Assembly (NCBI GenBank): GCA_035353995.1
Contig: DAOQAL010000001.1
Location: forward strand, 145,464 to 209,463
DNA: 64,000 nt
Source: Minisyncoccota bacterium
GTDB lineage: Bacteria; Patescibacteriota; Minisyncoccia; Phycocordibacterales; UBA9973
Reading direction: 5' to 3'
The position numbers were made by a program, and so were the translations under genes. The notes below the pieces were generated by a model. The model had not been told where the DNA came from. It made no database searches and saw only the letters and a program-made list of their open reading frames with translations. This document shows positions 5,082-63,385 of the stretch, piece by piece. The stretch's first letter is position 1; every line of letters starts with the position of its first letter.

Positions 5082-5633
5082 ATGTCTAAGATAATTATCG
5101 GTTTAGTGGGTTCATTGGCTAGCGGGAAAGAGACTATAAAAAAATATTTAGTGGAAAAAAATAATGCAAAAGATTGCAAATTTTCTTCTATTTTGAGAGA
5201 TGTTTTAAATAGGTTATCTGTGCCAATAAGTAGAGAAAATTTGCAGAAAGTTTCTACCGTTTTGCGTGAAAATTTTGGTGAGGATTTACTTGCTAGTGCT
5301 ATTGCTACTGATGCATCCAAATTGGATGCTGATATCGTTGTTATAGATGGTGTCAGAAGATTTACAGATATTGAACACTTAAAAGATTTACCAAATTTCG
5401 TTTTAGTAAAAATAGATGCTGATCCAAAATTGAGATATGAGAGAATGAAATTGAGAAACGAAAACGTAGGAGATGATAAAAAAACTTTTGAAGAATTTAT
5501 GAAAGATCACGAAGCAGAAGCAGATAAACAAATTCCTGAAGTTATGAAAACAGCAAAATATGAAATCATAAATAATGGCTCTTTTGAAGATTTATATAAG
5601 CAATTAGATGAGCTAATTGCTAAGCTTTCTTAG
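5082..5633 (+). CDS. P-loop nucleotide/nucleoside kinase-like protein (possibly dNMP kinase or dephospho-CoA kinase-like)
   Basis: Walker A GLVGSLASGKET at N-terminus; ~180 aa; sits in nucleotide-metabolism cluster. Confidence 0.45.
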   Translation: MSKIIIGLVGSLASGKETIKKYLVEKNNAKDCKFSSILRDVLNRLSVPISRENLQKVSTVLRENFGEDLLASAIATDASKLDADIVVIDGVRRFTDIEHLKDLPNFVLVKIDADPKLRYERMKLRNENVGDDKKTFEEFMKDHEAEADKQIPEVMKTAKYEIINNGSFEDLYKQLDELIAKLS

Positions 5634-6150
5634 TATATTCAACGAATTCTAAATCGTATTTATTTAAATCGTCTTTTGAATATTTTTGACTGGTAGTTTT
5701 TTGCCAGATATTTTCGTCTATTTCGGGAAAGAATATTTCAGCATCTGGAAATTCTGCATCAACGTGCGTTATATAAAGTTTGTCTGCTTTTTCTATCATA
5801 ATTCTATATATAGAGCCACCACCAATGACAAAAACTTCTTCGTTTTCTTGTGTTGTGTTTTTCAATAAATCTAAAAGTTCATCTATTGAATGAACTATTT
5901 CTGCGCCTTCTATTTTTAAATTAGAATCTTGGGAAATTATTATATTTCTTCTATTTGGCAAAAGTCTGCCAATCTGTTTTCCAGAAGTGTCTTTGCCCAA
6001 AGATTCAAAAGTTTTTTGCCCCATAATTACTGTATGTCCAGAAGTTGTTTCTTTGAAGTGTTTCATATCTGCAGGTAAATTCCAAAGAAGATCATTCTTT
6101 TTTCCGATTTCGTTATTTTTACCAATTGCTGAAATTATTGAGATAATCAT
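5620..6150 (-). CDS. folA: Dihydrofolate reductase
   Basis: MIISIISAIGKNNEIGKKNDLLWNLPADMKHFKETTSGHTVIMGQKTFESLG ... VIGGGSIY. Confidence 0.85.
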   Translation of the reverse strand: MIISIISAIGKNNEIGKKNDLLWNLPADMKHFKETTSGHTVIMGQKTFESLGKDTSGKQIGRLLPNRRNIIISQDSNLKIEGAEIVHSIDELLDLLKNTTQENEEVFVIGGGSIYRIMIEKADKLYITHVDAEFPDAEIFFPEIDENIWQKTTSQKYSKDDLNKYDLEFVEYTKKA

Positions 6151-6156
6151 ATTTTT

Positions 6157-7029
6157 TTAAACAGCTATTTCAAAAGGAATTTTGTCGTAGCTTTGATAGT
6201 TTAATAATTTTGTATCTTCAGAATGCCAATCGAAAATGGATTTCCAATTTTCTGTTTCTATCTTTGGTAGGGGATATTTATTGTAGTCTCGTGATAATTG
6301 TTCTTTAACACCTTCTAAATGATTTTCATAAATATGAACATCGGACAAAAAGCCAACCAATTTTCCTTCTTGTAAATTGGCTTCTTTTGCTAACAAGTGA
6401 AGAAATAATGCATAACTTGCAATGTTAAATGGAAGTCCAAGCATTGTATCAACAGAACGTTGGTTCCAAAGAAGATTCAATTTTCCATCTATTACTGTTA
6501 CCTGAAAAGCATAGTGACATGGTGGCAATGCCATTTCATTAAACTGAAGTGGATTCCATGCACTTACTATCATTCGGCGGTCGCGTGGATCTGTTTTTAA
6601 TGTTTCAATTATATTTTTTAATTGGTCAATTCCTTTTCCAGTGTAGTTTGAATCATAATTTTCATAAGGTGCATTAAAGTGTCGCCATTGAAAACCATAA
6701 ATTGGTCCTAAATCTCTTTCTTCAAGCATTTTTTTCTTTGCTTCTTGATCGTGTCCATACGGAGCTTTTTGTGGTTTTGCCCATTCATCCCAAATGTGAT
6801 TGTTCTTAGCCTGTAGCCATTGTTTGTCAGTTATGCCATTTATAAAAAATTCTAGTTCTGAAGCTATAAGTTTAAATGGAGTTTTTTTTGTTGTTAGGAG
6901 AGGAAAACCATTTGACATATCATGCTCGAATATTGCTCCAGCGATAGTATAAGCTTGTATGCCAGTTCTGGTCTCCACTTTTTTGCCTTCTTTCAAAATT
7001 TTTTGAATTATGTCTATGTATGCTTTCAT
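6157..7029 (-). CDS. thyA: Thymidylate synthase
   Basis: ThyA motifs incl. active-site PPCHYAFQ; start taken at internal Met (MKAYIDII). Confidence 0.9.
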   Translation of the reverse strand: MKAYIDIIQKILKEGKKVETRTGIQAYTIAGAIFEHDMSNGFPLLTTKKTPFKLIASELEFFINGITDKQWLQAKNNHIWDEWAKPQKAPYGHDQEAKKKMLEERDLGPIYGFQWRHFNAPYENYDSNYTGKGIDQLKNIIETLKTDPRDRRMIVSAWNPLQFNEMALPPCHYAFQVTVIDGKLNLLWNQRSVDTMLGLPFNIASYALFLHLLAKEANLQEGKLVGFLSDVHIYENHLEGVKEQLSRDYNKYPLPKIETENWKSIFDWHSEDTKLLNYQSYDKIPFEIAV

Positions 7030-7045
7030 GTAGTTATTATAACAG

Positions 7046-7072
7046 AAAACCACCCGAAGGTGGTTTTTTTAT
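7046..7072. terminator. Hairpin/T-tract between thyA start and rpmB end (likely rpmB terminator, bidirectional-looking)
   Basis: AACCACC-cgaa-GGTGGTT followed by T7 on + strand; A/T-rich on - strand. Confidence 0.45.
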
Positions 7073-8111: not shown

Positions 8112-10673
8112 ATGGACACTTTAAATTTTTTAAAAATTAAGTGGCACAAGATTACTTCTATCGTTTTATTGATTCTGCTTTTTGGTGCTTATGTAAATAT
8201 TTTTGCGATAGATCAAACTTATGATCCTGGTGAAACATTGGATCCAGAATGTGTGCCTGGTGAAGTAAATTGCACAGTAGAAATTCCTGTTTCACAATGG
8301 ACGACAAATGGAAGCAATATTTATTACGACTTAGGTAATGTTGGAATTGGAACAACTTTACCAAATCAACAATTAGAAATTACTCAAAACTTTAGACTTC
8401 CTTCTACAACTTACAATAGTGGAAATCCTTATGGAATAATTTACAAAGGAACAAATCCATTCATCCATGATTTCAATTATGGAAACAACGGTACTGTAAC
8501 GACAAGAGGACGCAATTTATTTATTGGTGAGAGTGCTGGTAACTTTACAATGGGGTCAACGGCAAATTACAGTAATAATTCTTCCAATAATATTGGAATA
8601 GGATTTCGCTCTTTGTATTCTAATACCACAGGATCTGAGAACTCTGCAGTAGGAAATTCTGCTCTTTATTTAAATACCACAGGAAGCGGTAACTCTGCAG
8701 TAGGAAATTCTGCTCTTTATTTTAATACAACAGGATCCACTAATTCTGCAATAGGAGATTATACTCTTTATTTAAATACCACAGGAAGCGGTAACTCTGC
8801 ATTAGGATCTGCTGCTCTTTATAGTAATACTGAAGGAAATTTTAACTCTGCAGTAGGATCTTTTGCTCTCTCTCGTAATACTATAGGAATTTATAACTCT
8901 GCAATTGGAAATAGAGCTGGTAGTTCTGTTGGTAATGGAGATAATCCAGGTATTGCCAGTAGTTACGGTGTATACATCGGTGCGTATGCCAAAGCTTTTG
9001 CCGATGGTGGTCAAAATGAAATTGTAATTGGTTATGATGCTACAGGTAACGGAAGTAATACAGCAACAATTGGAAACAGTTCTATATTAAGAACATATTT
9101 AAGAGGAGTAAATTTAGCAGGAGGTACAGCAACAGCAGGAACTGCTCCACTTAAATTTGTATCAGGAACATTACTTACAACTCCCGAGGCAGGCGCGATG
9201 GAATTTAATGGAACTAATTTATTTTTTACTCCTTCTTCTTCAAGAAAAAAAATTTCTTTTATAGAAGATCTTCCAATTACAATAGTTAATTCTTCAAGTC
9301 TTTTTTCAACAGGATTGTCTGGAACTGGTAGTGGAACAACAGCAGGGTATTCTATTTTTTTGGGAGTTGACGCAGGAGGTAGTGCTACTGGTGCAACATA
9401 CTCTAATTTTCTAGGTAATGGTGCTGGACTTAATGCAACTTCAGCAACAGCTTCAAATTTTTTCGGTTATTATGCTGGAGAAACAGCCACAGCAGCTAAT
9501 CATTCTAATTTCTTTGGCACTGAAGCTGGATACAGAGCTACTGGTGCACATTACTCAAATTTCTTTGGTAGTTATGCTGGCGAGTTCGCAGTAAATGCTA
9601 TTGAATCAAATTTTTTCGGTACTTCTGCTGGAGATTCTGCAGAAAATGCATCTCATTCAAATTTTATAGGCGATAATGCTGGAAATTATGCTTTAAATTC
9701 ATCACATTCAAACTTTTTTGGTACAGCTGCTGGTTACGCTGCTGAGAATGCATCAAATTCAATTTTTATAGGGTATAAGGCTGGAGAAAATGATACTGTC
9801 AACAATACTACAAATGCTAGTTATTATTCTATTCTTATAGGTCCAAGTACTAGCACTGATGGAAATGAAAATAGTATTGCATTGGGTGGTAGCGCAAAAA
9901 ATACAGCATCAAATCAATTTGTTATTGGTTCTGCTACAAGTCCGATAGATACAACTGTTATATATGGATCTGGCGGTACAATATGTACTATTACAACTGG
10001 AACGGGAATTGGTTGTTCTTCAGATGAGAATTTAAAAACAAATATTGTTGATTTAGATACGAACACTTTGGAAAAATTAACACAAGTAAGAACTGTAACT
10101 TTTAATTGGAAAAATCGAAATACTACTTCAAATAATATTGGATTTATTGCACAAGATTTAGAAAAATATTTTCCAGAATTAGTAAATACAGATCCAACTG
10201 GTTATAAATCAGTTTATTATGCAAACATAACTCCTATTTTAACTGAAGCTATAAGAGAACTTGATTTAAAAGTAAAAGAATTTTCTTCTATTGATGTTTC
10301 TAATGAAAATTCTTTTGCATCTTTAATTAAAAAATATTTGGCTGATGTTGCAAATGGTATTGAAATAGTTTTCTTTGGAGAAGTTCATACAAAACAATTG
10401 TGTATTGATGATGTTTGTATAAATAAAGATCAACTACAACAATTATTAGATAGTTCTAATATTACTAATACAATTACAAGCACTGTTACAGATACAGATA
10501 CAACAGAAAATACAAATTTGGAAAATGCTGACGATGCGGATAGTGATGAACCTGTAATAGATTCAGATATAGATTCTGAAAATATAGAAGAACAAGTAGT
10601 AGAAGAACAACAAAATAATGTAATTGAAGATGTAAATCCAAGTTTAGGTGCTGAACCAGTAGTAGAAGAATAG
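8112..10673 (+). CDS. Large secreted tail-fibre-like protein: Gly/Asn/Ser-rich beta-helical repeats plus intramolecular-chaperone (peptidase S74-like) domain and acidic C-terminal tail
   Basis: N-terminal TM/signal. Repeated NSAxGNSALYxNTTGS units. Motif SSDENLKTNI...TFNWKN...IGFIAQDLEKYFPELV typical of phage tail-fibre / endosialidase C-terminal chaperone domains. D/E-rich tail. Confidence 0.6.
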   Translation: MDTLNFLKIKWHKITSIVLLILLFGAYVNIFAIDQTYDPGETLDPECVPGEVNCTVEIPVSQWTTNGSNIYYDLGNVGIGTTLPNQQLEITQNFRLPSTTYNSGNPYGIIYKGTNPFIHDFNYGNNGTVTTRGRNLFIGESAGNFTMGSTANYSNNSSNNIGIGFRSLYSNTTGSENSAVGNSALYLNTTGSGNSAVGNSALYFNTTGSTNSAIGDYTLYLNTTGSGNSALGSAALYSNTEGNFNSAVGSFALSRNTIGIYNSAIGNRAGSSVGNGDNPGIASSYGVYIGAYAKAFADGGQNEIVIGYDATGNGSNTATIGNSSILRTYLRGVNLAGGTATAGTAPLKFVSGTLLTTPEAGAMEFNGTNLFFTPSSSRKKISFIEDLPITIVNSSSLFSTGLSGTGSGTTAGYSIFLGVDAGGSATGATYSNFLGNGAGLNATSATASNFFGYYAGETATAANHSNFFGTEAGYRATGAHYSNFFGSYAGEFAVNAIESNFFGTSAGDSAENASHSNFIGDNAGNYALNSSHSNFFGTAAGYAAENASNSIFIGYKAGENDTVNNTTNASYYSILIGPSTSTDGNENSIALGGSAKNTASNQFVIGSATSPIDTTVIYGSGGTICTITTGTGIGCSSDENLKTNIVDLDTNTLEKLTQVRTVTFNWKNRNTTSNNIGFIAQDLEKYFPELVNTDPTGYKSVYYANITPILTEAIRELDLKVKEFSSIDVSNENSFASLIKKYLADVANGIEIVFFGEVHTKQLCIDDVCINKDQLQQLLDSSNITNTITSTVTDTDTTENTNLENADDADSDEPVIDSDIDSENIEEQVVEEQQNNVIEDVNPSLGAEPVVEE
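8621..8880 (+). repeat. Tandem ~60-bp coding repeats inside tail-fibre-like gene
   Basis: Near-identical nucleotide units (...aactctgcagtaggaaattctgctctttatttaaataccacaggaagcggt...) repeated about 4 times. Confidence 0.6.
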
Positions 10674-10699: not shown

Positions 10700-12451
10700 A
10701 TGACTAAAACTTTCAAAAAGTTTTTAAAATATATTTTTGTTTTTATATTTTTTAGTATTCCTTTTACATTTCTTTTTGCTTCCGAGACAGATGGGACAAT
10801 AAATTCTATAAACCATAGTGCACTTCTTTGTGAAAATTATACATGCACTACAACTACACAAATTAATTTTTTGACTAGTCGTGGTCAAGCAGTACAGGTA
10901 ACTGATACAAAACTAACTGGTCATATTTGGTCTGAAAAAACAGGATGGATTAATTTAAACTCATCTAATGGTGGAGTTACAAATACAGAAGATGGAACTC
11001 TTGGTGGTTATGCTTGGGGAGAAAATACGGGATGGATAAATTTTAATCCAACAAATGGTGGTGTAACTATAAATAATTCTGGCAAATTTGTTGGGTGGGC
11101 TTGGGCACAAAATTACGGGTGGATTAAGTTTAATTGTAGCGTTGCAAATGCTTGTGTAGAAACAGATTGGCGCCCCATTGGTGCTCGTGATGGTGGTAGT
11201 AGTGGTAGTACAGGAGGTGGCACAACTGGAGGAGAAGGAGAAACACCAACTCCAACACCAAATCCTACGCCAATACCAGAAGAACCAGTAGAAATACCAA
11301 TTAACCCTTTACCTGTAGAATTACCTGTAGAGCCAGAAAATGTTCCAATTCAAATAGATGAGGAGACTAATGATGTTGAAACTGAATCAAATAATACACA
11401 AATACAAAATATTTTAGATGAAGGTGCTAATTTTTTAGATGACATTTTTCTAATTTTACAAACAGCAATAAATACAATATTTAATATATTTAGTACACCA
11501 ATAGGAAGTATTGTTTCAAAAACACTAGCTACTATCGGTGTTGTAACTGGATTTTACTTTAGTCTTATATCAATGTTCACAAACCCACTTTCATTTTCTG
11601 AATTAATATTAATACCTATGCGATTGTGGAGTTTATTGTTGGTTGCTTTTGGTGTTAAGAAACGCAATCGTCCTTGGGGAACAGTCTACGATAGTGTTAC
11701 AAAACAACCCCTTGATCCTGCATATGTTGTTCTTCAAGATTTAAATGGAAATGAAATTGCTACATCCATTACAGACTTGGATGGTCGTTATGGTTTTCTT
11801 GTTCCTGCTGGCCAATATAGAATTGTTGCCAATAAAACAAATTATGAATTTCCTTCAAAAAAAATGGCTGGTAAATCAAGTGATGAATTATATCAAGAAT
11901 TATATTTCAATGAAGTTATAAATGTTAATGAAGATGGGGAAGTTATTTCAAAAAATATACCAATGGATCCGATTAAGTTTGATTGGAATGAATTTGCTAA
12001 AAGAGATCAAAATGTTATGAGATTTTTTTCAAAGCGAGAAATTTGGATTGCTCGTGCTTCAAATACTTTATTTATTTTAGGTTTTTTGTTTTCTATAATT
12101 GCTACGATAATTTCTCCTAATGTATACAACATAATAATTATTTGTACTTATGCATTGTTATTCATACTGAAGAAAACAATTTTGAAGCATAAAGTGCTTG
12201 GCTGGATAAGACAAAAGGAAACAAAAAATCCACTTTCGTTTGCAATAATGAGAGTATTTTTTGCTGATAGTGGAAATGAAGTTATACATAAAGTTACTGA
12301 TAAAACAGGAAAATATTACTGTCTAATACCAAATGGAAGGTATTACGCCAAGATAGAAAATAAAAATCTTGATGAAAGATATAGTCTTGTTTATACTTCA
12401 GAACCTATAGAGGTCAAAAAAGGTTATATAAATAAAAAATTTGAAGTTTAA
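10700..12451 (+). CDS. Secreted/membrane protein with three W-rich GWINFN-type repeats, Pro/Thr-rich linker, TM helices and two carboxypeptidase-regulatory-like beta-sandwich domains
   Basis: Signal peptide. Repeats TGWINLNSSNGGVT / TGWINFNPTNGGVT / YGWIKFNCS. Linker TPTPTPNPTPIPEEPVEIP. CarbopepD_reg-like segments (DLDGRYGF..AGQYRI; TDKTGKYYCLIPNGRYYAKI). Confidence 0.5.
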   Translation: MTKTFKKFLKYIFVFIFFSIPFTFLFASETDGTINSINHSALLCENYTCTTTTQINFLTSRGQAVQVTDTKLTGHIWSEKTGWINLNSSNGGVTNTEDGTLGGYAWGENTGWINFNPTNGGVTINNSGKFVGWAWAQNYGWIKFNCSVANACVETDWRPIGARDGGSSGSTGGGTTGGEGETPTPTPNPTPIPEEPVEIPINPLPVELPVEPENVPIQIDEETNDVETESNNTQIQNILDEGANFLDDIFLILQTAINTIFNIFSTPIGSIVSKTLATIGVVTGFYFSLISMFTNPLSFSELILIPMRLWSLLLVAFGVKKRNRPWGTVYDSVTKQPLDPAYVVLQDLNGNEIATSITDLDGRYGFLVPAGQYRIVANKTNYEFPSKKMAGKSSDELYQELYFNEVINVNEDGEVISKNIPMDPIKFDWNEFAKRDQNVMRFFSKREIWIARASNTLFILGFLFSIIATIISPNVYNIIIICTYALLFILKKTILKHKVLGWIRQKETKNPLSFAIMRVFFADSGNEVIHKVTDKTGKYYCLIPNGRYYAKIENKNLDERYSLVYTSEPIEVKKGYINKKFEV

Positions 12452-31026: not shown

Positions 31027-31596
31027 TTAGTTATCTTTTATCCACTCGTTGTATTTAGATATAATAATTTGAACAACCTCGAAGAGGTTGTTTTTGTTTG
31101 TGTCTATAACAAGATCAAAATTGTTTTTGTCTGTGTGGTCAATGTTATACAGTTCTTTATATCTTTTTTTCTCGCTTTCTAATCTGTCTGTTATTTTTTT
31201 ATAAATTTCTTCTTTAGTTGATGACTCTTCACTACTTTTTCTTAATAGATTTTCTTTTAAATCATTCGCTATTCTGTCTTTTGCAATTTCAAGAGGTAAA
31301 TCTAAAAAAACTTTAAAAGAATCTGGTATCCAATGAAAAGCAAGACGAGAGTCAATTACAATTTGGTTTTCATTCGCTAATTTTCGTATTTCTTCATCTG
31401 TCATTTTGTCTATTCTCGTATCAGTTTCTGCAATTTTTGAAACTTGATTTAATGAAATTCCAAGCTTAAGTCCGATTTGACGAAAAAAATCACCAGATGA
31501 AAAATGTCTAAAATTAAGTTTTTGTGCAACTAATTTTGCAGTACTAGATTTTCCACTTCCAGGTGCTCCAGCTATTGTTATAATTTGTTTTTTCAT
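31027..31596 (-). CDS. cmk: Cytidylate kinase, short (archaeal-type) form
   Basis: IAGAPGSGKSSTAKLVAQKL P-loop; ~190 aa. Confidence 0.65.
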   Translation of the reverse strand: MKKQIITIAGAPGSGKSSTAKLVAQKLNFRHFSSGDFFRQIGLKLGISLNQVSKIAETDTRIDKMTDEEIRKLANENQIVIDSRLAFHWIPDSFKVFLDLPLEIAKDRIANDLKENLLRKSSEESSTKEEIYKKITDRLESEKKRYKELYNIDHTDKNNFDLVIDTNKNNLFEVVQIIISKYNEWIKDN

Positions 31597-31654
31597 ATAT
31601 ATGATAAATAATATCATTATTGATTTTTAAGCTCAAATTTTGTATTCTTAAAGA

Positions 31655-32243: not shown

Positions 32244-32927
32244 ATGAAAGAAGAAATAATTGTTATATCACTTGGTGGTTCATTAATCGTGCCTGATCAG
32301 GTGGATGTAGAGTTCTTAAAAGATTTTAAAGAACTTATTTTATCACAAGTTAAAAATGGAAAAAAATTTGTTATTGTTACGGGTGGCGGAAAATTTTGTC
32401 GAAGATATCAAGAAGCTTTAAAAAACTTAACATTACCATCAGGTGAAGATTTGGATTGGCTTGGTACATATTCAACTCGTTTTAATGCGGAATTTTTACG
32501 TTTAATTTTTGGTGAATTAGCTTGCAATGAGATAATAACAGACCCAACATTACCAATATCTTTTGATCATCCTATTGTGATTGGTTCAGGATGGAAACCG
32601 GGATGGAGTTCAGACTATGATGGTATTTTGCTTGCAAAGTCAGTTGGTGCTAAAAAAATGATTAATTTATCAAATACAGATTACGTTTATGATTCAGATC
32701 CGAAATTAAATCCTAATGCACAAAAAATTGAAAGAATTTCATGGAAAGAATATCGTGAATTGATTCCTAAAGAATGGAATCCTGGATTAAATTCTCCATT
32801 TGATCCTATCGCTTCAGAAATGGCAGAGAGGGAAGGTATTGAGGTTACAATAATGAATGGAAAACCTATTAGCAATTTAGAAAGTTACATTAATGGAGAA
32901 GATTTTCAAGGAACTATAATATATTAA
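32244..32927 (+). CDS. Amino-acid kinase family protein, probable UMP kinase (archaeal-type)
   Basis: ISLGGSLIV and VIVTGGGKF motifs; 227 aa. Confidence 0.5.
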   Translation: MKEEIIVISLGGSLIVPDQVDVEFLKDFKELILSQVKNGKKFVIVTGGGKFCRRYQEALKNLTLPSGEDLDWLGTYSTRFNAEFLRLIFGELACNEIITDPTLPISFDHPIVIGSGWKPGWSSDYDGILLAKSVGAKKMINLSNTDYVYDSDPKLNPNAQKIERISWKEYRELIPKEWNPGLNSPFDPIASEMAEREGIEVTIMNGKPISNLESYINGEDFQGTIIY

Positions 32928-32932
32928 AAATT

Positions 32933-33700
32933 ATGATAACAATAAAAACAAAAGAAGAAATAGAAATATTAAGAGAATGTGGCAAACGTTTAGCATTTGT
33001 ATTACATAAAACAGCAGAAAAAGTTGCTCCAGGAGTTTCTACTTGGGAACTTGATAAATATGCTGAAAAGTTAATAAAAGAAATGGGTGATTACCCAGCT
33101 TTCTTAAATTATCTACCAGAAGGGGCTAGCAGGCCATTTCCAGGGTCTCTTTGTGTCTCTGTGAATGATGAAGTTGTTCATGGTATACCTAGCAAAAAAA
33201 GGATTTTGAAAGAAGGAGATATTGTTTCTCTTGATTTGGGTTTACAACATAATGGACTTTTTACAGATATGGCAATTACTGTTCCAGTTGGGGAAGCAAG
33301 TCCAGCTTCTTTGAAATTAATTAAAACAACAGAAAAAGCTTTAGAGGTTGGTATTTCTGCTGCATGTGGTGGTGCAAGAGTTGGCGATATTGGTCATGAA
33401 ATAGAAAGTTTTGTAAGACCACAAAGGTATGGGATAGTAGAAATTTTGGCTGGACATGGAGTAGGAAGGGCAATACATGAAGATCCTTTTATACCAAATT
33501 ACGGAAAGAAAGGCGTAGGCGCTAAATTGGTTCCTGGTATGGTGATAGCAATTGAACCAATGTTAAACAATGGTACAAAAAATGTAACACTAGAAGATGA
33601 TGATTGGACATTTAGAACTGCTGATAGAAAAAAGAGTGCTCATTTTGAACATACCATTCTTATTACAGAAGGAGAGCCAGAAATTTTAACAAAAATGTAA
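32933..33700 (+). CDS. map: Methionine aminopeptidase type I
   Basis: Pita-bread fold metal ligands (D..D, H, E, E) in conserved context. Confidence 0.9.
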   Translation: MITIKTKEEIEILRECGKRLAFVLHKTAEKVAPGVSTWELDKYAEKLIKEMGDYPAFLNYLPEGASRPFPGSLCVSVNDEVVHGIPSKKRILKEGDIVSLDLGLQHNGLFTDMAITVPVGEASPASLKLIKTTEKALEVGISAACGGARVGDIGHEIESFVRPQRYGIVEILAGHGVGRAIHEDPFIPNYGKKGVGAKLVPGMVIAIEPMLNNGTKNVTLEDDDWTFRTADRKKSAHFEHTILITEGEPEILTKM

Positions 33701-33702
33701 AC

Positions 33703-33732
33703 TAAAAAATCCCCCATTGGGGGATTTTTTAG
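33703..33732. terminator. Bidirectional terminator between map and convergent gene
   Basis: AAAAAATCCCCC-att-GGGGGATTTTTT. Confidence 0.7.
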
Positions 33733-33736
33733 TTTG

Positions 33737-34303
33737 TTATTTACTTAATTCCAAAATTCTTTTTTCTCCATTTTCTCTCATCTTTGTTAGGAACATTCTG
33801 TGTTGTTCATTGAACTGAGCTTGTAGTGCTACTGCATCTTCAGTTTTGCCAATTTCCTTTTTTAAAGCAATTATTTTTTCTGTAAGTTTTTCTCCATCTT
33901 CACCCATTTCATATTTTTCTGCCATATTTTTGTAATTTCCACCTGCTTCTATTGAAACTCCTCCTACTCCAGTTGAGTATGAAGCTATATGATTTAAATC
34001 AAGCAAGTCATCCTTTAGTATTTCTTTAAGTTTTTCTGGATCTTTTATTTCAGAAATCGTTTTGGCTTTGAACAATTTCATAATTTTTTCTCTTATGCTA
34101 TTCCTCTTTTCCTCAGTTCTTTTTTCTACAAATTCATTATTTTTTGCTACAGGTTCTTTTACTGTTTCCGGATTCAAAATCCTCTTAGCTTGTTTAATAA
34201 CTTCTTCTTGTCCATTAATGTCTTCTTGCACACCAATGTTCTCATCAACTTCTTTTCTATTTTCTCCGTCTCCTTTAGGAGGCATTTCTTTTGTTAAAGG
34301 CAT
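33737..34303 (-). CDS. Hypothetical highly charged (E/K-rich) protein
   Basis: ORF only; divergent from the VirD4-like ATPase gene. Confidence 0.35.
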   Translation of the reverse strand: MPLTKEMPPKGDGENRKEVDENIGVQEDINGQEEVIKQAKRILNPETVKEPVAKNNEFVEKRTEEKRNSIREKIMKLFKAKTISEIKDPEKLKEILKDDLLDLNHIASYSTGVGGVSIEAGGNYKNMAEKYEMGEDGEKLTEKIIALKKEIGKTEDAVALQAQFNEQHRMFLTKMRENGEKRILELSK

Positions 34304-34378
34304 ATTTTTATATATTTAATCTAATAATATCTACATGTATATTATACATCTTTTTTAATTTATTGTATAATTGACCCA

Positions 34379-37144
34379 ATGGAAGGATTGTTTTCAAAGG
34401 AAATTCCGAAATTTAAAACTCCAGAGGAAGAGTTAAGCTTTTTGCGTGCTCATATTGAAAAAAGAGAAAGAGAATTAAAGGCAAATGGTCAAATTGAACA
34501 CTCTACTGAAAATGTTGCAAAGAATGTTATTTTAGAATATAAAGAAGCACCTGCTAATGAAATTATTCATAAAGATAATTTATTAAGCAAAAGAGATACA
34601 CAAGAAATTGTTTTAAAATTGAAACCAGAAACTCATGATGCTGTTATGGAAGAGTTGCTTGGTGTTGTAATAACAAAAGGAATTAAAAATGCTTTAGAAA
34701 TTGTTAGTTCAATGAACAATCCTCACGTTGATGATGATTTTCAAAGATTACTTGTTCAATACTTAAAGACAGGACAAATAATATCAGGATTGAAAGAGGG
34801 GTCTCCTTTGTATAGAGAATTAAATATGACACTGTTTGAAATAACATTGCCACCACCTATAGATGAAGCTGATAAGCAAAAAAGTTTTAAAGAATTTATT
34901 AGCGCAATGGAACAATTTTATGCTGGTATGCAATCTATTTCTGTAAGTGTTAATAATGAAAGGGAAGAATACTTTTCTCTTGAAGTAGCATTGTCGAGCG
35001 AAAGTGACCAAGTTGTTATATATGCAGCAATACCAAATAAACACATTTCTCTTTTTGAAAAACAAGTTCTTGCATTTTATCATGATGCAAAAATAAAAGA
35101 AGTTCCTGACGATTACAATATTTTTAATGAAAAAGGTTATTCTGTTGGAGCTTATGCCACTTTTGCTGAACGTGCCGTTTTGCCAATTAAAACATACGAT
35201 AGTATAGAACATGACCCAATGAATATGATACTTAATGCTTTTTCTAAGTTAAAGACTAATGGCGAAGGAGCAGCAATACAAATTTTGATTGCTCCAGCTG
35301 GTAATAAATTTATAAATGAATTTCATAAAATATTAGATGATGTTAAAGATGGAATATCGGTAAAACATGCTGATGATAATCTTTATAAATTCAATAAAGC
35401 TTTTTTGAAAGCATCAAAAGAACTTTTGTTTAATACTGAAAAGAAAACAGAAGAGAAAAAAGAAAAATATATGAAGGGAAGACGTGCCGTAGATGAAGGT
35501 GCTGTTGAAAAAATTGGCAACAAATTGAAAAGTTCTATTTTAAAAGCAAATATAAGAATAGTTGCTTCAGGTGAGAATAAGGAAAGAGCAGAAGCAATAT
35601 TGCGAGAATTAGAATCTTCTTTTAATCAATTCACAGAAGCTGCAAGTAATAGAATTTTTTTCGAACAAATTTCTGGAAATGAATTAAAAAAACTATTTCA
35701 TGATTTTTCCTACAGAGCTTTTTCCCATGATAAAATTTTGCCAATGAATCTAAAAGAGTTATCTTCTGTTTTTCATTTTCCAGTTGGAATTTCTGGTCAG
35801 GCTCAACTAAAAGAAGCAAAAGCTGGAATTTCTCCAGCACCTATTGATATGTCACAAGATGGTATCGTTCTTGGAATAAACAGCTATAGGGGACGTGATA
35901 CTATGGTTCGTCTCAATAGGGAAGATAGAATGAGGCATTTTTATGTAATAGGGCAGACTGGTACAGGTAAAACAAATGTAATGTTAAATATGATAACTCA
36001 GGATATTAAAAATGGTGATGGATGTTGTTATATTGACCCTCATGGCACTGATATTCAAACAATATTATCACGTATACCAAAAGAGAGAATCGATGATGTA
36101 ATATATTTTGATCCAGCTTATACTGCGCGTCCAATGGGTTTAAATATGCTTGAATTTGATCCAAAATATCCAGAGCAAAAAACCTTTGTTGTGAATGAAC
36201 TGATGGGAATTTTTAATAAGTTATTCGATATGAAAACATCTGGTGGTCCAATGTTTGAGCAGTATTTTAAAAACTCTGCATTTTTAATTATGGAAGATCC
36301 AGAATCAGGTTGCACATTGCTTGAAATTTCAAGAGTGCTTGCTGATAAACAATTCCGTGATATGAAATTGGCTAAATGTAAGAATCCAATCATAAAACAG
36401 TTTTGGATTTCAGCTGAACAAACAACCGGTGATCAATCCTTGGCTAACTTTGTGCCTTATATAACTTCAAAATTTGATAATTTTATTTCAAATGACATAA
36501 TGCGTCCTGTTGTTTTACAAGAAAAATCTGTGTTTGATTTTCGTAAGATTATGGATGAGAAAAAAATTCTTTTAGTTAACCTTTCGAAAGGACGTTTGGG
36601 AGAAATGAATGCAAATTTAATAGGACTTGTTCTTGTTGGAAAAATTCAAATGGCAGCATTATCAAGAGTAGATATGTTTGGAAAACAAATGAATGATTTT
36701 TATCTTTATATTGATGAATTCCAGAATGTTACAACTGATTCCATAGCATCAATTCTTTCTGAAGCACGAAAATATCGTCTTTCTCTAAATGTTGCTCATC
36801 AATATATCTCTCAGTTAGAAGAATCAATTAAAAATGCAGTATTCGGTAACGTAGGTTCAATGGCTGTCTTTCGTGTAAGTTCTGAAGATGCTGAATTTTT
36901 AGAAAAAAGATTTCAACCAACATTTAAATCAGCTGATATTATGAAGTTGGATAATTACAATGCTTATGTAAGTATGTTAGTAAAAGGCCAGCCAACAAAG
37001 CCTTTTAATATTTATACTCTTCCACCAGAAAAAGGTAATCCAGAAATAGTAGAGAGTTTGAAAGAACTTTCTTACTTAAAATACGGTCGCGATAGGGAAG
37101 AAATAGAATCCGAAATTATGCACAAATACGAGAGACAACAATAA
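34379..37144 (+). CDS. VirD4/TraG-like (type IV coupling-protein-like) P-loop ATPase with ~490-aa N-terminal region of unknown function
   Basis: Walker A GQTGTGKT followed by YIDPHGTD (DPxGE-like). Walker B LYIDEFQNV. C-terminal ARKYRLSLNVAHQYISQL resembling the TraG/TraD C-terminal region. Confidence 0.55.
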   Translation: MEGLFSKEIPKFKTPEEELSFLRAHIEKRERELKANGQIEHSTENVAKNVILEYKEAPANEIIHKDNLLSKRDTQEIVLKLKPETHDAVMEELLGVVITKGIKNALEIVSSMNNPHVDDDFQRLLVQYLKTGQIISGLKEGSPLYRELNMTLFEITLPPPIDEADKQKSFKEFISAMEQFYAGMQSISVSVNNEREEYFSLEVALSSESDQVVIYAAIPNKHISLFEKQVLAFYHDAKIKEVPDDYNIFNEKGYSVGAYATFAERAVLPIKTYDSIEHDPMNMILNAFSKLKTNGEGAAIQILIAPAGNKFINEFHKILDDVKDGISVKHADDNLYKFNKAFLKASKELLFNTEKKTEEKKEKYMKGRRAVDEGAVEKIGNKLKSSILKANIRIVASGENKERAEAILRELESSFNQFTEAASNRIFFEQISGNELKKLFHDFSYRAFSHDKILPMNLKELSSVFHFPVGISGQAQLKEAKAGISPAPIDMSQDGIVLGINSYRGRDTMVRLNREDRMRHFYVIGQTGTGKTNVMLNMITQDIKNGDGCCYIDPHGTDIQTILSRIPKERIDDVIYFDPAYTARPMGLNMLEFDPKYPEQKTFVVNELMGIFNKLFDMKTSGGPMFEQYFKNSAFLIMEDPESGCTLLEISRVLADKQFRDMKLAKCKNPIIKQFWISAEQTTGDQSLANFVPYITSKFDNFISNDIMRPVVLQEKSVFDFRKIMDEKKILLVNLSKGRLGEMNANLIGLVLVGKIQMAALSRVDMFGKQMNDFYLYIDEFQNVTTDSIASILSEARKYRLSLNVAHQYISQLEESIKNAVFGNVGSMAVFRVSSEDAEFLEKRFQPTFKSADIMKLDNYNAYVSMLVKGQPTKPFNIYTLPPEKGNPEIVESLKELSYLKYGRDREEIESEIMHKYERQQ

Positions 37145-37147
37145 TTT

Positions 37148-37666
37148 ATGGAAGACGAAAACTTACTAGAATTTGGCATTAAAAGAGAAAACGAAGAACG
37201 TCGCGATGGTGGCTGTGCTGTTGTTTTTGACCCAGAATCACAGAAATATGCTGTATATATTAATACCAAGAACGGTATTTATGGATTATTCGGTGGAGGA
37301 TTTAATGAAGGCGAGGATGAAAAAGAAGGAGTACTCAGAGAGCTTAGGGAAGAGAGCGGGCTTTATGATTTTTTATATATCGAGAAAATTGACAAGGTTC
37401 TGACCCATTATTTTAACAGTAACAAAGAAGTAAATCGTGTTGCAACGGCGGTTTGTTTTTTGGTTATCCTAAAAAGTTCAGATCGAAAGGATCCAAAACT
37501 TGAAGAACATGAAAAATTCGAATTTATTTTTACTGAACCAAAAGAAATAATGAATAATTGGCAGTCCAGAAATCAAAATAAAGATTACGACCACTGGATT
37601 TATTTTTTGAAAAAAGGAACGGAACGGGCTGGGAAACTTGGTTATGATAAAAAAATCACCGAATAA
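37148..37666 (+). CDS. NUDIX hydrolase
   Basis: Nudix box GGGFNEGEDEKEGVLRELREESGL; start 4 nt after ATPase stop. Confidence 0.75.
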   Translation: MEDENLLEFGIKRENEERRDGGCAVVFDPESQKYAVYINTKNGIYGLFGGGFNEGEDEKEGVLRELREESGLYDFLYIEKIDKVLTHYFNSNKEVNRVATAVCFLVILKSSDRKDPKLEEHEKFEFIFTEPKEIMNNWQSRNQNKDYDHWIYFLKKGTERAGKLGYDKKITE

Positions 37667-37782
37667 ATTTAAACTAAAAAAGGATTGCCTTATTAAATGG
37701 TAATCCTTTTTGTTATTATTGGCGTTTGCTAGAAAATCTGTTAGAATAGCTTTATTAATAGCTAAGTTTTTATAATAAAATT

Positions 37783-38367
37783 ATGAAACATCCAAAAGAA
37801 GAACAGACATATGTAATGATTAAGCCGGATGGAGTTCGTAAGGGCTTAATCGGTGAAATAATTAAACGTCTTGAACAGCGTGATTTGAAGATTGTTGCAT
37901 TGGAAATGTTCCAGCCAACCTTTGATATGATTAATGAGCATTATCCTAAGAAGGAGGAATGGATTACTCGACTTGGAGAAAAAACTAAAACTACATACGA
38001 AAAATACGGCTACGATTTGATTACTGATTTCGGTACTGACGATACATCAAAAATCGGACCAGAAGTTAGAAAGTGGTTGGTAGATTATATGACGAGTTCT
38101 CCACTTGTAAAAATGGCAGTACAAGGAGTGCATGCTGTTGATGTAGTCCGCAAGATTGCTGGTGACACAATGCCTTATAAGGCCGATATGGGAACCATTA
38201 GAGGAGATTTTTCCATAGATTCTCCAGCTTTGGCCAATAAAGAGAAACGGGCAGTCATGAATATTATTCATTGTTCCGAGACTCCCGAAGAAGCAGAGCA
38301 CGAAATAAAGCATTGGTTTGGTAATCAGAAAACTTACGACTATAAACGCTTTGGAGTAGACGAATAA
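37783..38367 (+). CDS. ndk: Nucleoside diphosphate kinase
   Basis: TYVMIKPDGV..., active-site His in NIIHCSE; contains an internal insertion. Confidence 0.8.
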   Translation: MKHPKEEQTYVMIKPDGVRKGLIGEIIKRLEQRDLKIVALEMFQPTFDMINEHYPKKEEWITRLGEKTKTTYEKYGYDLITDFGTDDTSKIGPEVRKWLVDYMTSSPLVKMAVQGVHAVDVVRKIAGDTMPYKADMGTIRGDFSIDSPALANKEKRAVMNIIHCSETPEEAEHEIKHWFGNQKTYDYKRFGVDE

Positions 38368-38375
38368 AATTTGAC

Positions 38376-38403
38376 AAAATCCCCGAGAGGGGATTTTGCT
38401 TTT
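38376..38403 (+). terminator. Intrinsic terminator after ndk
   Basis: AATCCCC-gaga-GGGGATTTT. Confidence 0.65.
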
Positions 38404-57911: not shown

Positions 57912-58436
57912 ATGAATCATATAAATATTGAAATAAAAGCTAAATCAAATAATCATGAAAGAATTCGTGAATTCTTGAAATCTCATAACGCTGACTTCAA
58001 AGGAATTGATCATCAAATTGATACATATTTCAAAGTAAATAAGGGTCGTTTAAAGTTACGCGAAGGAAACATCGAAAACTATCTAATATATTATGAAAGA
58101 GAAAATAAAGAAGGACCAAAACAATCAGATGTAATACTTTTTAAATTAACCTCAGGAAGCTCACTTAAATCAATATTAATAAACACAAATGGAGTACTAG
58201 TTGTTGTAGATAAAAAACGAGAAATATATTTTATTGAAAATGTGAAATTTCACATTGATACTGTTCAAGAACTCGGTACATTTATTGAAATAGAGGCTAT
58301 CGATGATGATGGTAGTATTGGAAAAAATAAACTGCTCCAGCAGTGCAACGAATATCTCAAACTCTTTGATATTTCAGAATCTGATCTTATTTCTGTATCA
58401 TACAGTGATTTATTGCTTGAAAAGATCGAAAAATAG
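57912..58436 (+). CDS. CYTH-domain protein (CyaB / thiamine-triphosphatase-like)
   Basis: N-terminal IEIKAK (ExExK) and size ~170 aa. Confidence 0.5.
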   Translation: MNHINIEIKAKSNNHERIREFLKSHNADFKGIDHQIDTYFKVNKGRLKLREGNIENYLIYYERENKEGPKQSDVILFKLTSGSSLKSILINTNGVLVVVDKKREIYFIENVKFHIDTVQELGTFIEIEAIDDDGSIGKNKLLQQCNEYLKLFDISESDLISVSYSDLLLEKIEK

Positions 58437-61511: not shown

Positions 61512-62159
61512 TTAATGTGCGACAGTAAAAGCTATAACTTTTTTTGCTCCAGCTTCTCTTAATACTTTTTTTGCTTCGCCTAGCGTTGCTCCTGTTGTAG
61601 TAACATCATCTATCAAAATTATATTTCTATTTTTTATTTTTTCTGCATTTTTCACAGAAAAAGATCCGATTATATTTTTTAAACGTTTATTCCTTTCTTT
61701 TATTAATGCTTGATGCTCTGTGTCTTTTGGTTTTAACAAAACGTCTTTTTCTAATATGAAATCTGTGTTATTTAATTTAATAAGTTTTTCGCAAATAAGA
61801 CTTGCTTGATTAAAACCCCTTTGGCGTAATCTTTTTGGTGAAAGTGGTATTGGTATTAATATTGGTTTTTGAAAATTTTCAAGTAATGATAAATCTGATA
61901 TTTCTTCAAGTATTCTTCCATACATTACTTCTGCAAAAATAGATGCAATACCTTTTTTATTTTTATATTTTAAAAGCCAAACTGCCTTTTTCACTGGTAT
62001 ATGCCTATAGTCATACATTGGAATAATCCATTTTGCGCTCTCACGTTCTGCTTCTGGGGAATCGTTTAAACATTTTATACACAAATCTGTGCCTTTTTTG
62101 CCACAAGAAATACAATACGATGGAAAGATTATATCTAAAATATTGTTTAAGATTTTCAT
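61512..62159 (-). CDS. comF: ComF-family phosphoribosyltransferase-domain competence protein
   Basis: N-terminal CISCG...CIKC zinc ribbon, C-terminal PRTase motif ILIDDVTTTGATL. Confidence 0.75.
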   Translation of the reverse strand: MKILNNILDIIFPSYCISCGKKGTDLCIKCLNDSPEAERESAKWIIPMYDYRHIPVKKAVWLLKYKNKKGIASIFAEVMYGRILEEISDLSLLENFQKPILIPIPLSPKRLRQRGFNQASLICEKLIKLNNTDFILEKDVLLKPKDTEHQALIKERNKRLKNIIGSFSVKNAEKIKNRNIILIDDVTTTGATLGEAKKVLREAGAKKVIAFTVAH

Positions 62160-62257
62160 TACTTTAAAAATTTTATTAAGAAGTCCTTTTACTCCTTATT
62201 TTTCTTGGTAATTACTTCCTTTTAATATTGCTTTTATGTTATAATATTAGCATAAAA

Positions 62258-63385
62258 ATGAATAATCCCTTTAAAGATTTTTTTTCAAATATCAAAGTTT
62301 TAGACAAAGATTCAAATAGTAGCGCTGTCGGAATAGACATCGGTTCTTCGTCTATTAAGGTTGTTGAAATAAAAAAGAAGGGAGGGAAGGCTACATTGGT
62401 AACTTATGGCATGATTGCTCTTGGTCCTTATGCAGATATTGAAGTAGGCCGTGTAACTAATCTACCTGTAGAAAAAACGATAGAAGCCTTAAAAGAAACA
62501 TTAAAACAATCTGGAGTTACAACAACATCTTCTGCTTTAGCAATTCCTTCACAGTCAAGTTTAGTTTTTACTATTGAGCTTCCTCCACAGGTTAAAAAGA
62601 CAGAAATGGCATCAATAGTTTCTACAGAGGCAAGAAAATATATTCCTGTGCCAATAGATGAAGTTTCTCTAGACTGGTTTATTCTTCCCAAAAAGGAAAT
62701 TTCTTTTGAAGAAGCAAATAATCCAGACTTGCAATTAGAGACATTTGAAAAAACAGAAGTTCTTGTAGTTGCAATACAAAATGATGTTGTATCAAAATAC
62801 AGATCAATTGTTGATGGGAACAAACTTAATGCTAGTTTTTTTGAAATTGAAATTTTTTCGTCAATACGTTCTAACTTTGAACATGAATTATCATTAGTTC
62901 TTTTAATGGATTTTGGAGCTTCGCGTACAAAACTTTCTATTGTTGAATTTGGAACAGTGAAAAGTTTTCACATTATACAGAAGGGTGGGGCAGATATAAC
63001 AGATTCTATTTCAAAATCTTTGAGTATTCCTTTTGCTGAAGCTGAAAAAATGAAAAAAGAATTTGGACTTTATGGCAATCCGAATGAAAAACAGCTAGCT
63101 GATATTATAAAAATTCACACAGACTATATCTTTTCAGAAACAAATAATGTATTATTAGGATACGAGAAGAAATACAATAAGTCTATAAGTAAAGTTATTA
63201 TTACCGGTGGAGGATCTTTACTGAAAGGATTGAAAGAAGTTGCTTCTGCAAATTTTAAAGCTGATATAGAAATTGGGCGCCCGTTTTCAAAAGTCGGTGC
63301 TCCTGCATTTTTAGATAAAGCATTAGAAGCCACAGGTCCTGAGTTCGGAGTTGCTATAGGACTTGCTTTGAGAAAATTACAATAA
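62258..63385 (+). CDS. pilM: Type IV pilus assembly ATPase-like protein PilM
   Basis: Actin-like fold N-terminus VGIDIGSSSIKVVEI; start at MNNPF (ORF-track start 62228 trimmed). Confidence 0.8.
   Translation: MNNPFKDFFSNIKVLDKDSNSSAVGIDIGSSSIKVVEIKKKGGKATLVTYGMIALGPYADIEVGRVTNLPVEKTIEALKETLKQSGVTTTSSALAIPSQSSLVFTIELPPQVKKTEMASIVSTEARKYIPVPIDEVSLDWFILPKKEISFEEANNPDLQLETFEKTEVLVVAIQNDVVSKYRSIVDGNKLNASFFEIEIFSSIRSNFEHELSLVLLMDFGASRTKLSIVEFGTVKSFHIIQKGGADITDSISKSLSIPFAEAEKMKKEFGLYGNPNEKQLADIIKIHTDYIFSETNNVLLGYEKKYNKSISKVIITGGGSLLKGLKEVASANFKADIEIGRPFSKVGAPAFLDKALEATGPEFGVAIGLALRKLQ

Follow-up and report, generated by a model that had tools for sequence, protein, structure and literature searches.

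What does an ATPase that resembles the coupling proteins of conjugation do among the ribosomal and housekeeping genes of a patescibacterial chromosome? The question is raised by a gene for a 921-amino-acid (aa) protein in a 64,000-nucleotide (nt) stretch of contig DAOQAL010000001.1 (assembly GCA_035353995.1), hereafter the window, in whose numbering all open reading frame (ORF) coordinates are given. The window is the ribosomal-operon region of a Patescibacteria genome of ∼31% GC, and its gene order is secY, archaeal-type cmk, adk, archaeal-type pyrH, map, a 188-aa ORF, the ATPase gene, a NUDIX hydrolase gene, ndk, a DUF2238 gene, a beta-CASP RNase gene, a gene for a TIGR00725-family protein, and the genes for L20, L35, and IF3. 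An earlier note, made without database searches, had read the ATPase as an orphan of VirD4/TraG type with a novel N-terminal half, possibly working with NUDIX and ndk. The answer that we favor, and hold to be probable, is that the protein is a ring translocase from the DUF8128 subfamily of type IV coupling proteins (T4CPs) and that it came from monoderm or archaeal conjugation machinery and became fixed in Patescibacteria. Part of this was known already, as DUF8128 is a catalogued family and orphan VirD4-type homologues of Patescibacteria were reported in 2025 (Quinonero-Coronel et al. 2025, PMC12102498). Modestly new are the predicted VirB4-like fold of DUF8128, the change from a membrane helix to a helical bundle in Paceibacteria, and conservation at the level of SecY.

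The motor domain and its family

The ORFs and ATPase motifs of the earlier note were recovered where it had placed them, with GQTGTGKT, YIDPHGTD, and LYIDEFQNV all found in the 921-aa protein. Pfam profiles placed TrwB_AAD_bind at aa 514 to 557 (1.4e-6) and TraG-D_C at aa 774 to 838 (2.7e-5), with no winged-helix C-terminal domain reported in that scan, and NCBIfam returned partial matches to SXT_TraD (8e-13), TOL TraD, a CD1115-type VirD4-like model, and others, none of them a VirB4 model. Within the ATPase family the T4SS-DNA_transf profile was also among the matches, and the catalytic residues K531, D779, and E780 were invariant across 93 family sequences. T4CP models matched all or most of 24 family members, while the VirB4 motor signatures CagE_TrbE_VirB, AAA_10, and TraC_F_IV matched none of the same 24; weak FtsK_SpoIIIE matches were found in 20 of them (best, 7e-5), below the T4CP models. 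A sequence search of the whole protein against the PDB gave weak HerA and TrwB matches only, around the P-loop. The identical protein is already public on a 421-kb contig of assembly GCA_964524305.1; its NCBI entry, from Candidatus Paceibacterota, reads [quoted passage not shown]

The full-length AlphaFold2 model had a mean predicted local distance difference test (pLDDT) score of 80 and carried an all-helical insert (aa 600 to 712) between Walker A and Walker B. Its C-terminal half superposed on TrwB delta-N70 with a target-normalized TM-score of 0.61 to 0.66 (root mean square deviation, ∼5 Å; ∼415 residues; 16 to 17% identity), and HerA and Cag-beta ranked after TrwB. The alignment spanned ∼415 of the ∼420 residues of TrwB and thus included its all-alpha domain. 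By its profiles and predicted fold, the protein is a VirD4/TraG/TraD-type P-loop ATPase of the FtsK-HerA superfamily, on the T4CP branch, so this identification by the earlier note is upheld by Pfam, NCBIfam, and the TrwB fold. With the T4CPs (VirD4, TraG, and TraD; TrwB of R388) it shares the P-loop domain, the all-alpha insert between the Walker motifs, the superposition, and the profiles; it differs in adding a DUF8128 domain of ∼350 aa and a helical bundle of ∼140 aa, in having no N-terminal transmembrane domain, and in being encoded by a chromosomal gene with core-gene conservation and no linkage to a relaxase or mating-pair-formation genes.

DUF8128 and a clade-specific N terminus

The N-terminal half, described earlier as novel and without a recognizable domain, proved to belong largely to a known family. 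A precomputed Pfam match on the identical protein assigns aa ∼143 to 490 to DUF8128 (PF26449), and the PHROGs family phrog_5156 (function not assigned) spans aa 147 to 916 (E = 8.9e-87). Local Pfam and NCBIfam scans of this half were empty because the local Pfam copy did not hold PF26449. A literature query for "DUF8128" returned no papers.

A search of 1.84 billion cluster representatives with aa 1 to 490 retrieved 1,039 proteins (E ≤ 1e-3), and the apparently full-length members among those listed were ∼800 to 1,120 aa long. Alignments with the distant members of ∼800 to 840 aa begin only at aa ∼143, and these members have a hydrophobic helix as their own N terminus; the protein is therefore made of three parts (aa 1 to 140, 143 to 490, and 496 to 921). 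An N-terminal segment with a 19-residue hydropathy of at least 1.6 occurred in 75 of 79 distant relatives of ∼830 aa versus none of 14 members of the window clade, in which the maximum over the first 80 aa was at most 0.36 (−0.02 in the window protein). The membrane-anchored sister form was found in Peregrini-, Gracili-, and Portnoybacteria. Thus, only the helical bundle of aa 1 to 140 is clade specific, and it stands in for the single membrane helix of the sister clades. Conservation across the family was 60% in the motor, 33% in DUF8128, and 30% in the N-terminal extension.

In the AlphaFold2 model of aa 1 to 500 (pLDDT, 76), helices were predicted at residues 15 to 131 and an alpha/beta domain at residues 143 to 465. 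Foldseek searches of the PDB with this model gave 14 matches at E ≤ 0.001, all of them to TrwK/VirB4 of the R388 type IV secretion system (T4SS), with E values of 2.5e-6 to 3e-4 over ∼400 to 436 columns at 7 to 10% identity and a query-normalized TM-score of ∼0.3 (∼0.34 over the 500-aa query); the next match (E = 5e-3) was noise. No sequence or profile method linked DUF8128 to the VirB4 N-terminal domain: the N-domain profile gave noise against PDB sequences, and hhalign of the DUF8128 profile with a plasmid VirB4-like N-terminal domain gave a probability of 0.2%. Since such a link is missing, the likeness suggests a fold-level lead rather than demonstrated homology.

These matches raise the alternative of a divergent VirB4-type ATPase, which would give the T4SS of Patescibacteria a second VirB4 paralogue. 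The predicted N-terminal half is significantly similar to VirB4 only, and the best Foldseek matches of the full-length model are likewise TrwK/VirB4, collinear through N-terminal alpha/beta domain and motor over ∼900 columns (E = 1e-15). The sister-clade layout of membrane helix, N-domain, and motor recalls VirB3-VirB4 fusions. The TM-scores of the full-length matches are low (0.25 to 0.31, versus those of 0.61 to 0.66 for TrwB on the motor), which points to a different domain arrangement. Together with the failure of VirB4 models on all 24 family members, the hhalign result, and the plasmid gene order described next, this makes a VirB4 identity very improbable.

Homologues on plasmids and phages

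A tblastn search of 72,556 plasmids found homologues in 394 records, many of the alignments running from aa ∼149 or ∼195 to aa ∼900, in hosts that include Bacillus, Streptomyces, Haladaptatus/Natrinema, and Sulfolobus. The plasmid proteins are annotated as "DUF87 domain-containing protein" or [quoted passage not shown] and the plasmid and phage homologues are 20 to 26% identical to the window protein across DUF8128 and motor. Gene context was read in four plasmids, two from Bacillus subtilis and one each from Streptomyces and Haladaptatus (examples: NZ_CP032854.1, NZ_CP081497.1, and NZ_CP085341.1, respectively). On both B. subtilis plasmids the gene for the homologue, of 886 or 913 aa, is the first of a conjugation operon, with a Replic_Relax relaxase gene directly after it and then the genes for a TcpC-like protein, TcpE, and a VirB4-like ATPase distinct from the homologue; TcpC and AAA_10 were confirmed by Pfam at one Bacillus locus (L091) and taken from the record annotation at the other (L093). 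The Streptomyces plasmid has the order PrgI (VirB3-like), VirB4-like ATPase, homologue, Replic_Relax relaxase, and a cell wall hydrolase with NlpC/P60 and SLT domains, and the Haladaptatus plasmid has a VirB4-like ATPase followed by the homologue.

A separate VirB4-like ATPase was thus present in four of four plasmids (confirmed by Pfam in three), and a Replic_Relax relaxase adjoined the homologue in three of the four. Because the homologue stands beside a separate VirB4-like ATPase and, in those three, directly upstream of the relaxase, the DUF8128 ATPase holds the position of the coupling protein on plasmids. A DUF8128 profile built from Patescibacteria columns only matched the N termini of the plasmid homologues (4.5e-24, 4e-35, 1.8e-11, and 5e-11, at Z = 1e5) and gave no match to the VirB4-like proteins of the same plasmids, which are matched by VirB4 models. 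The N-terminal half that the earlier note had taken for new is therefore common to ATPases of plasmid T4SS/relaxase clusters, one of two outcomes that the note had named as refuting its reading. Plasmid and phrog_5156 phage proteins share with the window protein the architecture of DUF8128 plus T4CP motor; the plasmid copies differ in standing in T4SS clusters, while the window copy is an orphan, N-terminally extended, and vertically inherited. The phage homologues, detected by sequence and by fold (E = 2.5e-17), belong to Bacillus phages, including G (gp156), CP-51, JL, Shanette, and SPO1-like phages.

Fixation in Patescibacteria chromosomes

A relative is encoded in 593 of the 600 candidate stretches from species-representative genomes, so that at least 593 species of Patescibacteria carry one. 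From one-genome-per-species contigs, 80 related loci were kept (numbered with an L where single loci are named), all of them from Patescibacteria and mostly from Paceibacteria, including Nomura-, Yonath-, Taylor-, Kaiser-, Zambryski-, and Campbellbacteria. Over the 17 loci with all markers, mean identity to the window's copy was 67.8% for the ATPase, compared with 71.9% for SecY, 71.0% for L20, 65.0% for map, and 63.3% for the beta-CASP RNase. The GC content at third codon positions (GC3) of the ATPase gene was 0.18, like that of neighboring genes. The order map, ATPase, ndk, DUF2238, and beta-CASP RNase was kept in ∼45 loci, down to ∼47% ATPase identity, while the neighbors were quite different in ∼30 Paceibacteria loci of more distant kinship and in those of Gracilibacteria type. 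The gene always stood among housekeeping genes (the tail of the ribosomal operon, dnaE-aspS, dnaX, and dnaB). In the ∼30 loci without the map/ndk context no consistent partner was seen, only lineage-restricted DedA, FKBP, tgt, uvrB, bPH-like, and large low-complexity proteins.

The ∼40 window ORFs scanned yielded no T4SS or relaxase domain, and no T4SS gene, relaxase, or integrase was found near the ATPase in the 80 species loci or in the sister-clade loci, so the orphan status claimed earlier for the window extends to more than 90 related loci. The 2025 study counted 5,713 VirD4-type homologues in 2,918 Patescibacteria genomes, of which 148 were near virB4, with relaxases nearly absent (PMC12102498). 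The present family agrees with those homologues in phylum, abundance, rarity of virB4 linkage, and near absence of relaxases, and what is added here is DUF8128, the VirB4-like fold, the loss of the helix in Paceibacteria, and the map-ATPase-ndk synteny, for which the sections of that paper drawn on here give no account. As the gene is near-universal, conserved like SecY, native in codon composition, and unlinked to virB4 or relaxase genes, the Patescibacteria copy is chromosomally fixed, vertically inherited, and domesticated.

These data bear directly on whether the locus could be what is left of a conjugative or phage element that integrated recently, with NUDIX, ndk, and the 188-aa ORF as cargo. 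The abundance of the family on plasmids and phages would fit such an origin, as would the raised GC3 of NUDIX and ndk and an IS200-type transposase in the corresponding slot of one relative (L095). The native GC3 of the ATPase gene, its syntenic position across many species at core-gene-level conservation, and the lack of any integrase, relaxase, or repeats flanking it in the window speak against the idea, which we find scarcely credible. For the ATPase itself, a recent mobile-element origin was rejected on GC3, synteny, and conservation.

A more serious alternative is a T4SS-independent housekeeping translocase that, like FtsK or HerA, works on the chromosome of the cell itself or on recombination intermediates, or else takes part in DNA uptake, conjugation ancestry being only its history. 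The window protein shares its ATPase superfamily with FtsK/SpoIIIE and HerA, including weak FtsK_SpoIIIE (20 of 24 members), DUF87, and HerA profile or fold matches; in the window clade it is soluble, without a membrane helix; it is conserved like SecY and always stands among housekeeping genes; and its phage homologues work without a T4SS. The few virB4-linked cases (148 of 5,713) fit as well, and exaptation of the Patescibacteria T4CP homologues "cannot be ruled out" according to the authors (PMC12102498). Against this, the sister clades retain the membrane anchor, the best sequence and fold matches are T4CPs rather than FtsK or HerA, and the protein has the T4CP-type all-alpha insert and no multispan membrane region. 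Neither an FtsK gamma domain nor a HerA HAS-barrel was detected, and no conserved NurA/Xer-like partner was seen in the 80 loci. On this balance we consider a housekeeping translocase possible, though unlikely.

Several observations weigh against our own preference for a coupling-protein translocase. Relaxase or T4SS linkage was seen in no Patescibacteria locus examined, and canonical T4CPs dock to the channel through an N-terminal transmembrane domain, which is missing from the window protein. The homologues in lytic Bacillus phages show that the family can work without a conjugation apparatus, and the likeness of DUF8128 to the VirB4 N-terminal domain comes from Foldseek alone (TM-score, ∼0.34) without profile support. 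In Ca. Southlakia epibionticum, according to PMC12102498, the t4cp homologue (which may not be of DUF8128 type) is nonessential and the T4SS genes are essential, which argues against an obligatory T4SS role. We nevertheless retain the T4CP-family translocase, at the strength given above.

Some relatives showed further features around the ATPase gene. One locus (L015) holds a second, truncated copy (496 aa) a few kilobases upstream of the full-length gene, between genes of the Cys-rich cluster c15 described below, which may be a pseudogene or a duplication. In six Kaiserbacteria-like loci (L063, L071, L078, L079, L081, and L045), the gene right after that of the ATPase encodes a low-complexity protein of 780 to 950 aa. 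This protein has a charged coiled-coil region at its N terminus, central hydrophobic segments, and, by eye, a seemingly shared C-terminal region and could be a lineage-specific partner. In two Gracilibacteria-type loci (L088, 10709-12190; L089, 10595-11854) and in one close relative (L002, 7390-9942), the DUF8128 ATPase is flanked by proteins with the peptidoglycan-binding domain PG_binding_1, and in L088 and L089 an M23 peptidase/SLH protein lies a few genes beyond them.

Neighboring genes and transcription signals

The features of the locus are collected in Table 1. Pfam confirmed the two downstream neighbors (NUDIX, 1.1e-7; NDK, 6e-36), and the NUDIX box G-x5-E-x7-REUxEExGU was matched by a regular expression, an RppH-like NCBIfam match lying far below its cutoff. 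The NUDIX ATG begins 3 nt past the ATPase TAA stop, and the earlier note had read this as coupling of the two genes. Seventy loci offered both a full-length ATPase gene and sequence beyond it, and in three of them the next ORF downstream has a NUDIX box: the window's own locus, L020, and L085, the last with a nonorthologous NUDIX; in L012 a NUDIX gene is second downstream. NUDIX orthologues are common in Paceibacteria (731 matches, with 61 to 76% identity among the 120 matches listed), and of four placed on contigs, two follow the ATPase (L094 and L095/96) and two lie elsewhere (L097 and L098). Adjacency is thus not conserved, which is the second outcome named in the earlier note as refuting, and the fallback that the same note had offered, that NUDIX and ndk are housekeeping neighbors, is the better reading.

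The slot between ATPase and RNase holds different genes in different genomes: NUDIX, CYTH, HD, HD_3, a second adk, or an IS200-type transposase. In a widespread Nomurabacteria genome (L095/L096, 5549-6184, minus strand), an IS200/IS605-type Y1 transposase gene directly follows the ATPase-NUDIX pair, which marks the slot as an insertion hotspot. The window itself has a CYTH-domain gene elsewhere (57912-58436, plus strand), and the CYTH genes in the slot of relatives were not shown to be of the same family.

TABLE 1 Annotated features of the ATPase locus (window coordinates)
Feature	Position	Strand	Basis or remark
Bidirectional intrinsic terminator, left unit boundary	33697..33737	.	Between map and convergent 188-aa ORF; 17-19-bp stem, 6 G-C pairs, T-runs on both strands
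188-aa E/K-rich orphan ORF	33737..34303	-	Divergent from ATPase gene; variable slot
Overlapping divergent promoter-like sites	34341..34371	.	TATACA-17-TATAAT on both strands, 10/12 matches; consensus match only
921-aa ATPase, T4CP family, DUF8128 subfamily	34379..37144	+	ORF, profiles, predicted structure
ATPase aa 1-140, clade-specific soluble helical bundle	34379..34798	+	Predicted helices 15-131, pLDDT ∼65-89
ATPase aa 143-490, DUF8128 (PF26449) alpha/beta domain	34805..35848	+	Pfam and predicted VirB4-N-terminal-domain-like fold
ATPase aa 496-921, T4CP-type nucleotide-binding domain	35864..37144	+	Profiles and TrwB superposition
Walker A, aa 525-532	35951-35974	+	GQTGTGKT
All-alpha insert, aa ∼600-712	36176-36514	+	Predicted structure
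Walker B LYIDEFQN, aa 776-783	36704-36727	+	Sequence
172-aa NUDIX hydrolase, intact NUDIX box	37148..37666	+	Pfam and box regular expression
13-bp hairpin between A-tract and U-tract, likely terminator	37677..37711	+	Folding energy versus shuffles
Promoter-like site TTGGCG-17-TAGAAT with extended TG, before ndk	37719..37747	+	Consensus match only
194-aa nucleoside-diphosphate kinase (ndk)	37783..38367	+	Pfam NDK
Bidirectional terminator after ndk, right unit boundary	38374..38399	.	Terminator scan

The divergent gene upstream exists and is E/K-rich, as had been noted, but it gave no tblastn match in the 80 related loci, formed a singleton cluster, and had no family match above threshold; relatives carry unrelated genes or nothing in its place. 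This 188-aa ORF is probably not a conserved partner.

The claim of raised GC held for both genes but not in its detail. The ndk gene has a GC content of 0.388 and a GC3 of 0.333, and NUDIX has a GC3 of 0.283, compared with 0.15 to 0.21 in neighboring genes, and the GC-rich part of NUDIX is the 5′ half (0.384) and not, as proposed, the 3′ half (0.314). Two types of ndk occupy the same slot, one of 194 aa and one of 157 to 183 aa. The former (L006 to L009, L011 to L013, L015, L016, L018, L019, L023, L033, and L035) is 72 to 85% identical to the window copy even where the ATPase is 54 to 65% identical (L018, L023, and L035), and the latter (L002, L004, L010, L014, L017, L021, and others) is only ∼28 to 45% identical to it. 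The two types, together with a window ndk whose GC3 is twice that of its neighbors, suggest that ndk was replaced in place or exchanged horizontally among Paceibacteria.

On the plus strand, the last base of the −10 box TATAAT lies 7 nt ahead of the ATPase ATG, and the mRNA may therefore be leaderless or nearly so. The terminator scan found no terminator between ATPase and NUDIX, and a hairpin (−16.5 kcal/mol; z = −4.9; 0 of 200 shuffles folded as well) and a promoter-like site precede ndk. Judging from these sequence signals, ATPase and NUDIX are probably cotranscribed in this genome, with ndk as a unit of its own. The scan did not call the hairpin itself, its stem having too few G-C pairs.

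The earlier note's module, in updated form, would have the ATPase import or handle host nucleic acid and cmk, adk, pyrH, NUDIX, ndk, the beta-CASP RNase, and a LOG-like protein process it. Nucleotide and RNA enzymes do flank the ATPase on both sides (archaeal-type cmk and pyrH, adk, NUDIX, ndk, RNase, and the TIGR00725-family protein), the slot of relatives holds other nucleotide hydrolases (CYTH, HD, and HD_3) or again a NUDIX (L012, L020/L095, and L094; nonorthologous in L085), and the probable cotranscription described above agrees. A 2026 preprint proposes feeding on host RNA via PNPase, Adk, PyrH, Cmk, and Ndk and leaves the uptake route open, with which the proposal is compatible. However, the spc ribosomal operon ordinarily ends in secY-adk-map, and since synteny extends over the entire 20-kb block, little can be read from adjacency. 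Only three of the 70 loci have a NUDIX-box ORF right after the ATPase gene, and of the four NUDIX orthologues placed, two lie elsewhere; ndk and NUDIX look foreign in GC3, ndk being a separate transcription unit; and the association is gone in the ∼30 distant Paceibacteria loci and the Gracilibacteria-type loci. PADLOC gave no defense-system signature for the trio, the ATPase core having generic matches only (mad8, 5e-12; HerA), NUDIX and the 188-aa ORF marginal ones (E > 0.002), and ndk none. We regard the module as improbable. A defense-system reading of the gene set was rejected, as PADLOC matched no system.

None of NUDIX, ndk, and the 188-aa ORF is a conserved partner of the ATPase, and what looked like a NUDIX/ndk "module" comes down mostly to synteny and a variable slot. 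A bolder version, which we offer as a long shot, is that the DUF8128 ATPase is a cytoplasmic motor that pulls host RNA or DNA into cells, with or without a relaxase-less T4SS; its placement in Paceibacteria would then be a feeding or salvage island, and the subfamily may preserve an ancestor with "VirB4-like N-domain plus motor" that predates the VirB4/VirD4 split.

Other genes in the window and related loci

Further observations concern the surroundings of the locus. The window cmk (31027-31617, minus strand) and pyrH (32244-32927, plus strand) score above the cutoffs of TIGR02173 (cyt_kin_arch) and TIGR02076 (pyrH_arch), respectively, and below those of the bacterial models. Between pyrH and map, nine loci (L015, L016, L019, L020, L022, L023, L075, L008, and L012) carry one to three tandem genes for Cys-rich proteins of ∼560 to 590 aa (cluster c15) with many CxxC zinc-ribbon-like motifs, an insertion at the ribosomal operon tail that has no counterpart in the window. 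A close relative (L004/L005, 1-637) has a reverse transcriptase (RVT_1, group II intron-like) within the ribosomal protein operon, just upstream of S14.

The window also holds a thyA-folA pair (5620-7053, minus strand). An 853-aa protein with Peptidase_S74 (endosialidase chaperone, tail-fiber-like; 8112-10673, plus strand) is followed by a 583-aa protein with CarboxypepD_reg (10700-12451, plus strand), both possibly surface or adhesion proteins or phage derived. Some 25 kb from the ATPase, a ComFC-like gene (double zinc ribbon plus phosphoribosyltransferase; 61512-62159, minus strand) adjoins a PilM/FtsA-like type IV pilus gene (62228-63385, plus strand), representing competence and pilus functions.

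A model for the DUF8128 ATPase and its significance

By analogy with TrwB, the protein would assemble into a ring, most likely a hexamer, that would hydrolyze nucleoside triphosphates at the Walker A and B sites and thread a polymer, most likely a nucleic acid, through its pore. The all-alpha insert and DUF8128 would serve as docking surfaces for a partner at the membrane, be it the T4SS of Patescibacteria, which lacks a relaxase and has its genes elsewhere, or something else. In the window clade (Paceibacteria/Nomurabacteria-like), the membrane helix has been replaced by the soluble helical bundle of ∼140 aa.

Patescibacteria are unable to make nucleotides and depend on their hosts, and their T4SS, essential in one genetically tractable species, is yet relaxase-less. 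With the NUDIX/ndk module removed as a false lead, naming the N-terminal half as DUF8128 gives handles on interaction partners, on substrate, and on the evolution of VirB4 and VirD4. Thus, a near-universal ATPase conserved at housekeeping level, and soluble in Paceibacteria, becomes a candidate motor or substrate receptor of T4SS traffic or, alternatively, a candidate repurposed chromosomal translocase.

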